Of a stretch of DNA of 40,785 bases, positions 13,683-40,719 are shown one piece after another. Origin of the DNA: a virus (lineage: Duplodnaviria > Caudoviricetes); the IMG/VR virus record IMGVR_UViG_3300048854_000036, positions 1-40,785 of that record. One strand, 5' to 3'. A model generated the notes under the pieces. That model made no database searches and was not told the DNA's origin. It was given only the letters and a program-made list of their open reading frames with translations. Made by a program: the position numbers and the translations under genes. Each line of letters opens with the position of its first letter. The stretch's first letter is position 1.

Positions 13683-14549
13683 TTAAACGACCGGCGTGTT
13701 GCCGTGCTGACGATTGAAGAACGTGCGCACCTTCGCAACCGTCTCAGCGTGCTTCGGATGCTTCTCGTTGGTGTATGCCTCCGAGCGCATGAGTTCTTGA
13801 ACGCCGCTCTCGGTTTGCAGCACGCCACCGCCGCCTGCCTGCGCCGTGTCTTCGCTGAATTCCGGCCCAAGCGCGGCCATCATGCGAATGAATGCCGGGT
13901 TGTTTGCAAGGCCGCTGGACTCGATCTCGTCCATCGACACACCTGCGATCGAGCCCACCCGCGTCGCCGCATTGAGCGCGTGCTTGAAATTCGCTTTGCT
14001 CGTCGTCGGGTCGGTCCAGAGCTTGCCGAGTTCGGCCGTGCATGCCTCGGCGCTCAACTGGCTGCTCGCGCCCACGAGTGCCGGCGCGATCTTCCAGTAT
14101 TCGCCCATCACTCCATCGAACTGTTTCTGCGTGAGACCGAGACCATGCAGCGAATTGCGCACCTCCTTGAACCCGGCGTCTTCGTCGAGATTCACCATGT
14201 CCTTCATCGAGTCGGGCACGGTGACGGTGTATTCCTCAGGCGTCTTCGGCGCAGCGCCACCCGTGCCAAGTCGCTTTTCCAGCTCTGAGCGCGCCGCTTC
14301 GACCTTGCGTGCGGACGCTTCGAGATCGAGCGAGCCGTCTTCCTTCGCTACGCGGTACTTCTCCGGCACCCATGCACTCGGGTCGGCAGCAGGATCGGCG
14401 GGAGGAGCCGGATCTGCTGCGGTGGTGAGCGCGCTCGGTGCGGCTGAAGGGGCAGGCGCGACAGGTTCGGCTGGTGCAGCAGCGGGCGCACCGCCTGCGG
14501 GCGCCTCGGTGGTGACTTCTTCCATCAGCGGGTAATGCTTGCGAAACAT
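13683..14549 (-). CDS. Capsid scaffolding protein, 288 aa
   Basis: Pro/Ala-rich N-terminus, PEKY, P.TPEEY, GLTQKQ, HPKH motifs; upstream of the capsid gene. Confidence 0.8.
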   Translation of the reverse strand: MFRKHYPLMEEVTTEAPAGGAPAAAPAEPVAPAPSAAPSALTTAADPAPPADPAADPSAWVPEKYRVAKEDGSLDLEASARKVEAARSELEKRLGTGGAAPKTPEEYTVTVPDSMKDMVNLDEDAGFKEVRNSLHGLGLTQKQFDGVMGEYWKIAPALVGASSQLSAEACTAELGKLWTDPTTSKANFKHALNAATRVGSIAGVSMDEIESSGLANNPAFIRMMAALGPEFSEDTAQAGGGGVLQTESGVQELMRSEAYTNEKHPKHAETVAKVRTFFNRQHGNTPVV

Positions 14550-19358: not shown

Positions 19359-20486
19359 TTACAAGGCGTGTTCGATGTCGTGCAGCACGGCCAGCAACTC
19401 GGACATGATCAGCGCTTCGCCGGCCATGATCTTGAGCTTCAGACGGCGCGCTTGCGTCTTCACGGGGTGCTCGTCTTCATCGGAAGCGGACGTACTTCCA
19501 TCCAAATTCGCCGATGACGAGGACGTGATCGGGGACGAGATCGGGATAGGTGACGAAGAGCTTGCCGATGCTCCACTCACCCCTTGCGACTCCCCCACGG
19601 CACTCGCGGGTTGATCCGCCGCAACAGGGTCGCTTGACGCTGCGGCCGCTTGCGCGGTGTTCACGTCGGTCGTGGAGTCGGGAACGTTGCCACCGATGCC
19701 TGCGTTCTCGTTGGTGTTGGCGGCCGTCGTATCGGTCGCGGCGAGCGGGCTATCGTCGGTCGTGATGCCTGCGGTCGTGTTCGAGCCTGCGATGACTGCG
19801 CCCGTGCCTTCGGTCGAGTCAGCCACCGGCACGACCACGCCACCAGCGCCCAAAGGGAGCGCAGAGTCTGCCGAAGAAACCGAGCTTTCGTCGGACAGGC
19901 TCGTCGCTGCGCTTGAGGGACTCGATGAGTGCACGGAGGGCGATTGCGCGGAGTCGGTTGCGGTGCTCGCCGAGATCGGGGAAGTCGGCGTCGAATCGGC
20001 AGTCTGTGATGACGATCCTTCGTCCGTCGATTGGGTCGAATTTGATTGGCTCGCGCTGGAAATCGAGGAATCCGATTCCGTCGAGCCACTCACGTTTGGG
20101 ACGTCACCACCACCGACAGGAGCATCGCCAGCCTGTTGGGCGCCATCGGTTGCAGCGCCCGCAGCGTTTCCCGCGTCAGCGGTTTGGCTCTGCGACGAGT
20201 TGGAACCATCGGCGTCCGTGCTCGTCGGGTTCTCCGAGCCGGTCGATGCGGAGTCGTTCGTCGTCAGCGAGGTATCCGAGGCAGAGCCGACGGTCGCCGT
20301 CTCGGAGAATGCGTTTCCCTGCTCACCTGCATCGCCAGCCGTGGCAGCGGGCGCAGAGGCGTTGTCCTGCGATTGCTCGTCCGACGAGGCACCACCAGCA
20401 GCGTTTCCCGTTTGCTCCTCCGGGTGCGCATCGAGCGCGGCTTGGTCGATCTCGTCGGGCTTCTTCGTTTCGTCAGTCATGGTCAT
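19359..20486 (-). CDS. Acidic low-complexity protein (375 aa, zero frame) carrying six in-phase -1 slippery sites and five overlapping -1-frame modules
   Basis: AAGGAG SD before ATG at 20486; heptamers at 20409, 20319, 20172 (GGGAAAC), 20100 (CCCAAAC), 19857 (CCCTTTG), 19596 (GGGGGAG). Confidence 0.8.
   Translation of the reverse strand: MTMTDETKKPDEIDQAALDAHPEEQTGNAAGGASSDEQSQDNASAPAATAGDAGEQGNAFSETATVGSASDTSLTTNDSASTGSENPTSTDADGSNSSQSQTADAGNAAGAATDGAQQAGDAPVGGGDVPNVSGSTESDSSISSASQSNSTQSTDEGSSSQTADSTPTSPISASTATDSAQSPSVHSSSPSSAATSLSDESSVSSADSALPLGAGGVVVPVADSTEGTGAVIAGSNTTAGITTDDSPLAATDTTAANTNENAGIGGNVPDSTTDVNTAQAAAASSDPVAADQPASAVGESQGVSGASASSSSPIPISSPITSSSSANLDGSTSASDEDEHPVKTQARRLKLKIMAGEALIMSELLAVLHDIEHAL
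19477..19596 (-). other. -1-frame module 5: GGVARGEWSIGKLFVTYPDLVPDHVLVIGEFGWKYVRFR*
   Basis: Hand translation from G_GGG_GAG; hydrophobic beta-like pattern while the zero frame reads Ser/Pro-rich. Confidence 0.65.
19819..20100 (-). other. -1-frame module 4 (93 aa): PKREWLDGIGFLDFQREPIKFDPIDGRRIVITDCRFDADFPDLGEHRNRLRAIALRALIESLKRSDEPVRRKLGFFGRLCAPFGRWWRGRAGG*
   Basis: Hand translation from C_CCA_AAC; no ATG of its own; normal codon style in the -1 frame. Confidence 0.75.
20104..20172 (-). other. -1-frame module 3: GKRCGRCNRWRPTGWRCSCRWW*
   Basis: Hand translation from the third G_GGA_AAC; CxxC-x9-CxC. Confidence 0.65.
20176..20319 (-). other. -1-frame module 2: GKRILRDGDRRLCLGYLADDERLRIDRLGEPDEHGRRWFQLVAEPNR*
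   Basis: Hand translation from the second G_GGA_AAC; globular-protein composition. Confidence 0.7.
20323..20409 (-). other. -1-frame module 1: GKRCWWCLVGRAIAGQRLCARCHGWRCR*
   Basis: Hand translation from G_GGA_AAC; CxxC-x11-CxxC. Confidence 0.7.
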
Positions 20487-20514
20487 GCTCCTTTGGGTTG
20501 GTGCTACCGGGGGA

Positions 20515-25095: not shown

Positions 25096-25785
25096 ATGCT
25101 TATCAAAATCCTTCACCGTTTCACCGCAGCCGTTCTGTTCGAACACGACGCCGAAGACAACTCGATGCGAGTGACACTTGAATTGGCATTGAAGAGCGAC
25201 GCGTACCTGAGCGGCGCGTACCTGAGCGACGCGTACCTGAGCGGCGCGTACCTGAGCGGCGCGGACCTGCGCGGCGCGGACCTGAGCGGCGCGGACCTGA
25301 GCGGCGCGGACCTGAGCGACGCGTACCTGAGCGGCGCGTACCTGAGCGGCGCGGACCTGCGCGGCGCGGACCTGAGCGGCGCGGACCTGCGCGGCGCGTA
25401 CCTGCGCGACGCGTACCTGAGCGGCGCGGACCTGCGCGGCGCGGACCTGAGGCCCATCAAAGCCGATTTCCTCGAAATCATCTCTCAGGCGCCCAAGGAA
25501 ATCCCGGCGCTGATTGCGGCCTTGAAAGAAGGTCGCGTCGATGGATCGACTTATTCCGGCGAATGCGCGTGCCTTGTCGGGACGATCGCAAATGCACGGG
25601 GCATGGATGTCAATTCCGATGAATTCAATATCTTGATGGACTCGCAGCGGCCCGCAGAGAGTTTCTTCATGGCGATTCGCAAAGGTGACACTCCTGAAAC
25701 GAATCCTGCATCCGCTCTCGCGCTGGAATGGGCCGAGAGCTTTTACAAGACGATGACCGAAGCATTCGGCGCGAGCGTCTTTTGA
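25096..25785 (+). CDS. Pentapeptide-repeat protein, 229 aa
   Basis: 17 A(Y/D)L(S/R)(G/D) units; C-terminal [20 protein letters not shown] domain. Confidence 0.9.
25201..25455 (+). repeat. 17 x 15-bp tandem repeat GCG(T/G)ACCTG(A/C)GCG(G/A)C
   Basis: Read directly from the sequence; the last unit is degenerate. Confidence 0.95.
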
Positions 25786-39040: not shown

Positions 39041-39073
39041 AGTTTGCTGCCGAGTGCCCGTCGATATCCCGAC
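39041..39073 (-). promoter_or_regulatory. Putative activator-dependent late promoter: GTCGGGATATCGAC-N13-CAAACT
   Basis: Exact 14-mer at 39060-39073, overlapping the terL stop codon. Confidence 0.75.
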
Positions 39074-40719
39074 TAGCTTTCTAGCGAAACCTCATATACG
39101 CCGCCGTTCGGACGCCATTCAAGGCGCTCGTGTTCGGTGATCGAGCCAACGATTTTCCCGATGCGCACGGGCGCTTCTAGGATCGCGCTCGCGCCACTGT
39201 CGAGGAAGTCGTCCGGCTGCGTCTTGATGGCGGGATTCCAGTCCTTCATCTGATCCCAGAGCGGCCCGTCGAGCACGTCGACGTGCGCCCACAGCACGCC
39301 CGATTTCAGCGGCGGCTCAAGCCCGGCGAGGATCTTTTCGTTCTTGTTCACGGTGGCCGTACGTTCGATCACCGCGCACGACAGACCATGCTGCTTGAGC
39401 GCCTTGCGCAGCAGTTTCGGCGTGAATGAGCCGACGCCATTCGACTCGACGACGACCTGGGGAATCTGATACTTCGCGATGATCTCGCAGGCCTGCATCA
39501 CCTGACCGCTTTCGATGGTGGCATTGCGGTCGTCAGAGAACACGGCCGCCTCGCCAATGAGAGCGACGGCGACCTGCCAGTAATAGTTTCCGCTATTGTC
39601 CTCGAACATGACAGAGAACGCGGAGTCGTCGCCGCCGACCTTGCCGAGTGCGCAATCCCAATAGGCGCGCGCGCTGACGATGCGCGTCGCGCCGAGCATC
39701 ATGCGGATCTCGCCGTTGGCGCGCTCGACAAGCGGCTGCACGGCATAGGGCTTGATGCCCTCAGGATCAAGGCGCGATTCAGTGACGGGCTTCGCTTCGA
39801 GCTGATACTGGCTGTCCCAGTAATTCAGCGTGCGCGTCTTCGCGCGGCGCTTTGCGATGTCCTCGCGCGTGAAGCGCTCGGGCCACGCGCAGTGTGCGTA
39901 GATATCGAGCACCGCGCCGGGAGGCTGCGCGAATACGACGTCTTGCCCCTCGACGCGATAGTCCTTTCCTTCGACAAGCAGTTTCGCGTGCTTGTAGATG
40001 CCGGTCATCACGTACAGACCGTCGGCACCGGGCTTGAAGTTGAAGCGGAAACGCGTGCGCTTGTCGACGTCCTTGTCATAGCGCACGGCGGATTCGAACA
40101 GCGGGATCTTCAGCGAGGACGCGCCGGCCGAGATCAGCTCGGGATAAATGGAGTCGTGCGTGTGCGGCGTGCCGATGTACGTTTCCTGACCGCCCGGCAC
40201 CAGGATGAAGGTCGCTTCCTGAATCTTCAGGCGCAGGTTTTCACGCGATTCAGGTGTTCGAATATTCTTCGGCACCTCGACATCGTCATAGTCGATGCTG
40301 TCCGCGCGCGCCGACGTGACGTTCTGATCGACGCCGACGGCGGTCATGCTGGCGTTTCGCGGATCGGCCGCGCCGTTGACCCAGAACATCTGTGAGCCGG
40401 GCTTCGTCGGCAGCATGCCAGCGCACAGCGGGTGCCGGCGCAGCACGTTGATCGTGTCTCGGGTCAGTTTTTTGGAGAGCCCGCCATCAGCCGCCCAGAT
40501 CAGGTTTCGGGCGCGAGGATCTTTATAGAAGCCCCACGCCTTATAGACGGCGTAGATCGTGGACTTCGCCGCGCCGCGGAACACCTGGAGCACGCGCACC
40601 GGGTCGTCGCACGTCTCCAGCCAGTTGCACACGCGCACGTGCAGAATCGGCACCTTCCAGCCCTGCACCTTTGCCCACATAAGGAAAAAGGCGAGGAACG
40701 AGACCTTAGCCCTTTCCAT
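39073..40719 (-). CDS. terL: Terminase large subunit, 548 aa
   Basis: Walker A FRGAAKST, Walker B IDYDDVE, coupling motif IGTPH, nuclease YWD.A....D.S, ESNG, PDDFLD. Confidence 0.92.
   Translation of the reverse strand: MERAKVSFLAFFLMWAKVQGWKVPILHVRVCNWLETCDDPVRVLQVFRGAAKSTIYAVYKAWGFYKDPRARNLIWAADGGLSKKLTRDTINVLRRHPLCAGMLPTKPGSQMFWVNGAADPRNASMTAVGVDQNVTSARADSIDYDDVEVPKNIRTPESRENLRLKIQEATFILVPGGQETYIGTPHTHDSIYPELISAGASSLKIPLFESAVRYDKDVDKRTRFRFNFKPGADGLYVMTGIYKHAKLLVEGKDYRVEGQDVVFAQPPGAVLDIYAHCAWPERFTREDIAKRRAKTRTLNYWDSQYQLEAKPVTESRLDPEGIKPYAVQPLVERANGEIRMMLGATRIVSARAYWDCALGKVGGDDSAFSVMFEDNSGNYYWQVAVALIGEAAVFSDDRNATIESGQVMQACEIIAKYQIPQVVVESNGVGSFTPKLLRKALKQHGLSCAVIERTATVNKNEKILAGLEPPLKSGVLWAHVDVLDGPLWDQMKDWNPAIKTQPDDFLDSGASAILEAPVRIGKIVGSITEHERLEWRPNGGVYEVSLES

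Follow-up and report, generated by a model that had tools for sequence, protein, structure and literature searches.

The window analysed here, a stretch of 40,785 bp, is a complete virus record with direct terminal repeats. Its gene content, assigned with PHROGs, includes a repressor, a CII-like activator, a RecT-like protein, an exonuclease and a podovirus-type virion set, with about 51% identity to the nearest cultured capsids. We infer a host within the Burkholderiaceae, since the nearest carrier is labelled Burkholderia sp. KK1 and Burkholderia phages match the upstream DNA. A single contig of run X1, possibly the source of this DNA, covers the whole stretch with zero differences, so assembly error is not indicated. 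The early region also encodes a pentapeptide-repeat-like protein with many five-residue repeats (25096-25785, +), and the large terminase and an HNH gene (39073-40719 and 425-1066, -) are found downstream of the internal virion proteins and well away from the portal-type gene.

The gene under study lies on the minus strand, flanked by a Holliday junction resolvase gene plus an 80-aa gene and by a repressor-like HTH gene; a promoter scan found none. Its zero-frame product contains 52 Asp and Glu residues, seven Lys and Arg residues and no Cys, Trp or Tyr. Six slip-type signals lie in phase along the gene, each opening a -1 frame that lacks a start codon (Table 1). The six motifs were recovered where the initial annotation had placed them and in the phase it gave, and its five -1 peptides read as quoted. 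It had set the start at 20486 and predicted products of 54 to 375 aa. The predicted ladder of seven products stands, each likely two residues shorter, because the second ATG, at 20480, is the more likely start codon: GGAG lies 7 nt before it and it is the sole start ATG present in relative L002. Initiation there would give products of 52, 101, 125, 220, 220, 334 and 373 aa.

Table 1. Features of the putative frameshift array gene, in window coordinates.
Feature	Position	Strand	Remarks
Carrier ORF, zero frame	19359..20480	-	373 aa from ATG 20480 (375 from 20486); leader of 23 aa, acidic spacer rich in Ser/Ala/Thr/Gly, conserved tail of 39 aa that looks helical
Shine-Dalgarno-like AAGGAG region before start	20488..20494	-	from sequence
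Site 1, G_GGA_AAC	20403..20409	-	retained in L002, L003 and further homologues
Module 1, -1 frame, 26 aa, two CxxC	20323..20403	-	TGA 20325-20323; predicted product 52 aa
Site 2, G_GGA_AAC	20313..20319	-	TGA 3 nt upstream
Module 2, 45 aa	20176..20313	-	predicted product 101 aa
Site 3, G_GGA_AAC	20166..20172	-	TGA 3 nt upstream
Module 3, 20 aa, CxxC and CxC, Trp/Arg-rich	20104..20166	-	predicted product 125 aa
Site 4, C_CCA_AAC	20094..20100	-	TGA 3 nt upstream; 26 C_CCA_AAC in the family
Module 4, 91 aa	19819..20094	-	predicted product 220 aa
Site 5, C_CCT_TTG, opening 10-aa module 4b	19851..19857	-	predicted product 220 aa
Linker, signal-free	19600..19818	-	-1 frame: TAG, Arg/His-rich
Site 6, G_GGG_GAG, non-canonical	19590..19596	-	recurrence in relatives
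Module 5, 37 aa	19477..19590	-	predicted product 334 aa

A strict scan for X_XXY_YYZ heptamers returned sites 1 to 5 and a T_TTG_GGC that overlaps site 5; the gene's other two phases contained no such heptamer. By comparison, 19 reference genes of the same phage hold zero to two such heptamers each. When the span was recoded synonymously in 20,000 runs, the mean was 0.23 signals and the maximum 4, with at least four occurring once (5 in 100,000). Site 6 (G_GGG_GAG, 19596) lies outside the X_XXY_YYZ form and is non-canonical; it recurs in relatives. Elsewhere on the minus strand, an in-phase G_GGG_GAA stands at the extreme end of a 150-aa tail-fibre-like gene (17667-17655). The -1 frame there runs stop-free into the next gene, the motif may be merely that gene's ribosome-binding site, and no homologue of the gene was found among the fetched loci.

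The codon argument of the initial annotation proved weak when taken alone, as GC3 in the -1 frame is 0.67-0.74 over the modules, yet 0.65 in the linker; the Arg/His-rich sequence and stop that it described in the linker's -1 frame were found. It had also described the zero frame over the modules as having the composition of an off-frame reading. This description holds only in part, since module 2 has normal zero-frame codons, and the zero frame is more than an off-frame reading, being constrained in its own right, as recoding comparison shows. With window codon statistics weak alone, the case rests on relatives. A tblastn search with the window zero frame gave no match among GenBank phages.

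Pattern scans recovered 55 further distinct phage genes with two to eight signals, which with the window gene make 56 genes and 230 sites. Four scans returned 45, 27, 9 and 50 loci, of which 31, 14, 4 and 6 distinct genes were kept; 20 duplicates or near-duplicates, one truncated gene and 55 out-of-phase, closed, repetitive or ordinary loci were left out. Selection was partly by eye and for one set by a composition filter, and the 56 genes are related in groups. The 230 sites comprise 164 G_GGA_AAC, 26 C_CCA_AAC, 22 G_GGG_GAG, 8 C_CCT_TTG, 7 G_GGG_GAA, 2 G_GGA_AAG and 1 C_CCA_AAT. Although part of no search pattern, G_GGG_GAR and C_CCT_TTG recur in phase: G_GGG_GAR occurs 29 times in phase and once out of phase, and four of the eight in-phase copies of C_CCT_TTG lie 6 nt past a -1 TGA. 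Two direct homologues have leader and tail in common with the window gene and carry G_GGA_AAC four and five times; their -1 modules are partly different, one being a hydrophobic two-segment peptide. What the initial annotation missed is, on the genes retrieved, a widespread family with exchangeable cassettes and unrelated carrier proteins.

Of ten records looked up, five had a named host: Paraburkholderia tropica (MBB2999659.1 is one member), P. pallida, Caballeronia arvi (member SAL47133.1), C. temeraria and Burkholderia sp. CF099, to which phage BcepB1A is added. Five named database entries list only the zero-frame product, annotated as hypothetical, and the BcepB1A copy bears no annotation at all. 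In this cultured phage (AY616033.2; L169:3096-3374) a carrier of 92 aa lies between gp37 and gp36 and contains two G_GGA_AAC sites and two -1 modules rich in Cys. Further searches were negative within their scope: 301 genomes of one order gave no further match, a G_GGA_AAG version of the pattern gave three loci, none array-like, and a three-site pattern without the TGA gave no family member among 120 loci (28 of 64 parts scanned). A pattern scan of genome contigs (27 of 64 parts) served as background: 61 of 119 were in phase, and on inspection by eye none resembled the family.

The motifs exceed what the search itself would bring in. Across the 56 genes, (G/C)3AAA(C/G) lies in phase 192 times and out of phase nine times, and 82 of the 192 were unneeded for retrieval. 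Gly-Asn is encoded as G_GGA_AAC in 102 of 107 cases from 32 genes, where the search forces about two per gene, compared with GGA at 39 of 580 other Gly residues, and GGG and CCC swap freely ahead of AAAC. The motif is kept beyond what the protein needs. A -1 TGA stands 3 nt before G_GGA_AAC at 119 of 133 later sites and at 2 of 31 first sites, which have no module ahead of them (one per gene being forced by the search); at later sites with an unforced position, TGA is at -6 in 66 of 81. Between sites, TGA occupies 121 of the 124 -6 positions available to it, versus 30 of 458 others. GG precedes the TGA in 86 of 139 cases at sites versus 35 of 202 for other -1 TGAs. Pairing with the anti-Shine-Dalgarno sequence is found at 72% of later sites versus 11%, a figure confounded with the TGA, and folding 3' of the sites is not strong (mean MFE -16.6 versus -12.8 in controls, z about -1.1).

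The initial annotation found no in-frame ATG in the modules, and this largely extends to the family: ATG occurs in 5 of the 230 -1 frames, and any of ATG, GTG or TTG in 13. At 74 of 80 unforced sites A_AAC is followed by G, and nearly all modules therefore start with Arg. One cassette family, starting R-R-C-x-x-C-G and containing RKRH, has C_CCA_AAC as its opening motif in some genes and G_GGG_GAA in four; its occurrence behind two motif types supports the doubtful sixth site.

Selection was estimated by simple counts rather than a codon model, from 65 spanning-tree cassette pairs clustered on DNA. Over cassettes the dN/dS-like omega was 0.33 in the -1 frame, a moderate value, versus 0.79 in the zero frame. 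The reverse was seen in the tail (1.18 in -1, 0.22 in zero) and the leader (1.76 and 0.28). A looser clustering, which chained unrelated modules, gave the same trend more weakly. Variability over cassettes was highest at the -1 wobble position (0.192 versus 0.105 and 0.086); the zero-frame wobble position was the most variable in tails (0.230) and leaders (0.164). We rejected the +1 frame as coding over cassettes, its wobble position being the least variable. Internal indels were multiples of three in 23 of 26 cases. Loss of the heptamers or gain of -1 stops in homologues, which would have spoken against frameshifting, was not seen: the motifs are kept and multiplied, the -1 frame is the conserved one over cassettes, and its stops cluster directly before the next site. 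The zero frame over the modules, compared with random coding, contains 18 versus 354 Cys, Trp, Phe or Tyr, 25 versus 563 Arg or Lys and 651 versus 186 Asp or Glu; absence of zero-frame stops, being partly by definition, was excluded from the evidence. Judged by these patterns, both frames are coding over the cassettes.

In the window gene, selection on a -1 frame that lacks its own start is supported outside residues 36-78 of module 4. Module 1 belongs to a 13-member family (-1 omega 0.40), module 2 to a three-member family with 60-65% identity (0.41) and module 3 to a 10-member family (0.19). Module 5 has one homologue, 50% identical and behind the same G_GGG_GAG, in L181, which also has a module-1 homologue without a heptamer of its own. 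Among the fetched loci, module 4 matches only over its last 13 aa, leaving 78 residues without a homologue there; relatives of its first ~35 codons occur in runs X2 and X5, and a comparison of the module with viral contigs gave no match. The one match among 1.84 billion representatives was rejected: it is a protein built of helical repeats that are near-identical to each other, and its score was summed over six stretches. In the ESM Atlas, module 4 showed low recognition, giving leads at most. A single-sequence fold (pLDDT 44.7) was disregarded.

Across 216 modules CxxC occurs 182 times against 70 +/- 7 expected (2.6-fold), and other Cys spacings are not enriched. The modules contain 20% Arg, 11% Cys and 5% Trp, and 85% are net positive. 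Some relatives' modules match zinc ribbons of the CxxC...CxxC type (Pfam DZR_2, DnaJ_CXXCXGXG) weakly, sharing the Cys spacing; the best match (E 8.5e-4, 19.5 bits) and all others fall below curated cut-offs. Accordingly, none of 137 modules reached the Pfam cut-off, and the three window modules scanned gave no hit, even weak. Against PHROGs the best module match was 5.6e-5, to an unknown family, and the window modules had none.

Compared with the window, contigs from three other runs in two studies show cassettes exchanged at their borders with the frame preserved. Module 2 is replaced (147 for 132 letters), in run X2 by another in-frame cassette, and module 4 is missing (net 240) or shortened (net 111). 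The contigs of X2 and X5 come from RNA libraries and contain relatives; they are no measure of transcription. In the shortened form, read by hand, a -1 TGA lies 6 nt ahead of C_CCT_TTG, which argues that module 4 of the window is likely a fusion extending into module 4b.

The carriers vary, some starting with a hydrophobic segment and some bearing unrelated domains, and their neighbours are as varied as an ssDNA-binding protein, terminases and capsid genes. About a dozen carriers, L008, L009, L016, L040, L188, L191 and L192 among them, have a hydrophobic start ending P-M/F/L-x-x-x-D/E; the scaffold-like gene at 14549 of the window starts similarly, and the segment is a candidate signal peptide or cleavage motif. 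L174:932-1963 (-) has a Pro/Ala-rich carrier (phrog_11133) and two -1 modules with DnaJ-like CxxCxGxG spacing, below cut-off. Arrays also occur in phrog_18957 genes of 243-254 kb contigs (L026, L190), that of L190 adjoining an RNA polymerase beta subunit gene. In two uncultured jumbo relatives, the arrays lie within a longer acidic N-terminal part. Five cultured jumbo phages (five of 30 matches fetched) have the phrog_18957 domain and no array, so the array is dispensable there; one of them has a lone A_AAC_CCC upstream of the annotated start. The distribution tentatively suggests that the array was gained.

Could the gene simply encode a disordered acidic protein in which (D/E)-x-G-N recurs, its heptamers made by duplication and its -1 peptides mere shadows of T-ending codons? 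Tandem-repeat proteins do carry in-phase GGGAAAC triplets (40 distinct cases in 120 control loci), so phase alone is not diagnostic, and the structure of the code makes Ala/Gly/Val/Ser-rich frames read as Cys, Trp and hydrophobic residues in -1. However, TGA was at -6 in none of those 40 control cases, none of 378 within-gene cassette pairs were alike, and between the motifs there are no repeated units, TRF finding just one short 12-18-nt repeat. Reshuffling the family's codons gave 17 signals, 45 CxxC and 386 stops, versus 230, 186 and 189 observed, and substitutions favour the -1 frame over cassettes. This explanation is largely refuted and, in our view, extremely improbable. Slippage that is real and only throttles the full-length product, the -1 peptides being disposable tails, is likewise exceedingly improbable: the modules are short, omega is moderate, singletons are many and family matches are absent, but a throttle needs an immediate stop, as in csoS2, and here mostly 11-60-codon frames follow, with a CxxC excess and conserved residues.

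The modules might instead be separate mini-genes, entered at a non-AUG start behind the Shine-Dalgarno-like GGTGA or by re-initiation after the preceding TGA. Enrichment of GG before site TGAs and a near-fixed spacing that resembles an initiation distance would fit, yet the codons at the sites (GGG/CCC-AAA-CGN) are not start-like, the TGA is mostly missing at first sites, and mini-genes would give no purpose to the GGG/CCC interchange or to a constrained acidic zero frame; we consider this very unlikely. Finally, the -1 frame could be reached at the nucleic-acid level, by RNA polymerase slippage, DNA deletion or phase variation between motifs, as the precise cassette deletions and swaps among relatives might suggest. 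Homopolymer runs of just 3-5 nt and the phase bias (an inserted base would serve any phase) make this most unlikely, and since swaps preserve the frame, even module 1 would still require a shift.

We conclude that the window gene is very probably a serial -1 frameshift array, which would yield as many as seven proteins that begin alike and end differently. The signals, their phase, the stops, -1 selection, zero-frame constraint and cassette exchange are observed; the slip itself and its efficiency are inferred. Ribosomes would leave the zero frame by a programmed -1 slip at any one of six sites, through tandem slippage at the Gly-Asn, Pro-Asn and Pro-Leu sites, and at the Gly-Glu site 6 either with a middle G-U pair or by a P-site-only slip. 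A small ribosome share would exit at each site, so that every site could be served, and the zero frame would form a neutral, acidic, disordered tether taking ribosomes to later exits. The GGTGA directly upstream may be a stop codon doubling as anti-Shine-Dalgarno partner and aiding the slip, and cassettes may be renewed by recombination at TGA-NNN-heptamer borders. G_GGA_AAC has a low efficiency in Escherichia coli and is nevertheless listed among the commoner heptamers of IS1/IS3-family elements (PMC4066793); this low efficiency fits a serial design, but the products would be scarce. C_CCU_UUG is listed among motifs exceeding 0.10% unaided (PMC4066793), and 1-3% is given for A_AAC variants (PMC6787027).

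More tentatively, at slightly less than even confidence, the modules may form a compact library, expressed at a low level, of small cationic effector peptides, most of them zinc-binding, for host takeover or counter-defence. This reading draws on composition, diversity and position, with zinc binding read from the CxxC excess. We lean modestly towards a broader proposal, in which Burkholderiaceae phages would have grafted a portable cassette array, comparable in prokaryotes to alternative splicing, onto disordered linker regions of genes that are otherwise unrelated. G_GGG_GAR would be a new slip motif, and each stop codon would stimulate the next site. The array would span 40-kb temperate to 250-kb jumbo phages and supply, from one start codon, a fast-evolving, annotation-invisible library of zinc-finger and cationic effectors. 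If true, up to eight selected proteins per phage ORF are hidden and overlooked by gene callers. The family yields more than 200 new small-protein candidates, its 230 sites are a natural series for learning bacterial frameshift rules, and the pattern is a simple one for re-reading other acidic low-complexity phage genes.

The elementary -1 step is known. The serial-cassette architecture is real and conserved, and probably undescribed: a literature search that covered few subscription papers gave no account of an array of this kind. The lambda G/GT-type tail assembly chaperone (PMC5009743) and gp18/19 of Burkholderia phage KL1, whose predicted site is G_GGA_AAC (PMC3483164), resemble the array in the features described for them: a phage gene with a -1 shift on X_XXA_AAN, a low share, and a common N-terminus followed by a new C-terminal part. 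G/GT-type genes have one site near the stop, two products and a fixed place before the tape measure gene, whereas the arrays spread 2-8 sites over the gene, end in short modules and occupy many genomic places. The window gene has neither a single near-stop site nor tail tube and tape measure flanks; its phage is of podovirus type, with no tape measure among the genes scanned. In L180:734-1314 and L170, a G/GT-like gene lies between tail tube-like and tape measure-like ORFs (neighbours by eye). G_GGA_AAC is near its stop in the GGTGA-NNN context seen in the arrays, and another in-phase G_GGA_AAC stands upstream of this one.

The -1 shift inside an open zero frame, giving a shorter isoform, is similar to accounts of dnaX tau/gamma and csoS2, and an upstream Shine-Dalgarno-like element aids the shift in dnaX. 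In the arrays the spacing of the anti-Shine-Dalgarno match is 3 nt, shorter than in dnaX. As described, dnaX and csoS2 have one site and a tail of few residues (the csoS2 stop follows after 3 residues; PMC5009743), in contrast to the many sites and selected -1 modules of the array. More than one frameshift per coding region is reported for retroviruses, with two -1 shifts, and for genes of Euplotes and mitochondria, where the number reaches 12 (PMC5009743). The multi-shift genes named there are solely of the extending or restoring kind, successive shifts serving one long product, whereas the array sites would be alternative exits, each with its own stop. PRFect is likewise described as treating one site per gene pair (PMC10885494).

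Constant N-terminal parts with variable C-terminal cassettes that are exchanged by recombination are also found in shufflons and in the orphan cassettes of polymorphic toxins. In both, one cassette is picked by DNA rearrangement; shufflons have inverted cassettes, recombination repeats and an adjacent recombinase, which they require. In the window gene the cassettes are co-oriented and neither neighbour is a recombinase. Unlike shufflon or toxin cassettes, those of the array would, as proposed here, all be read from one unrearranged mRNA.
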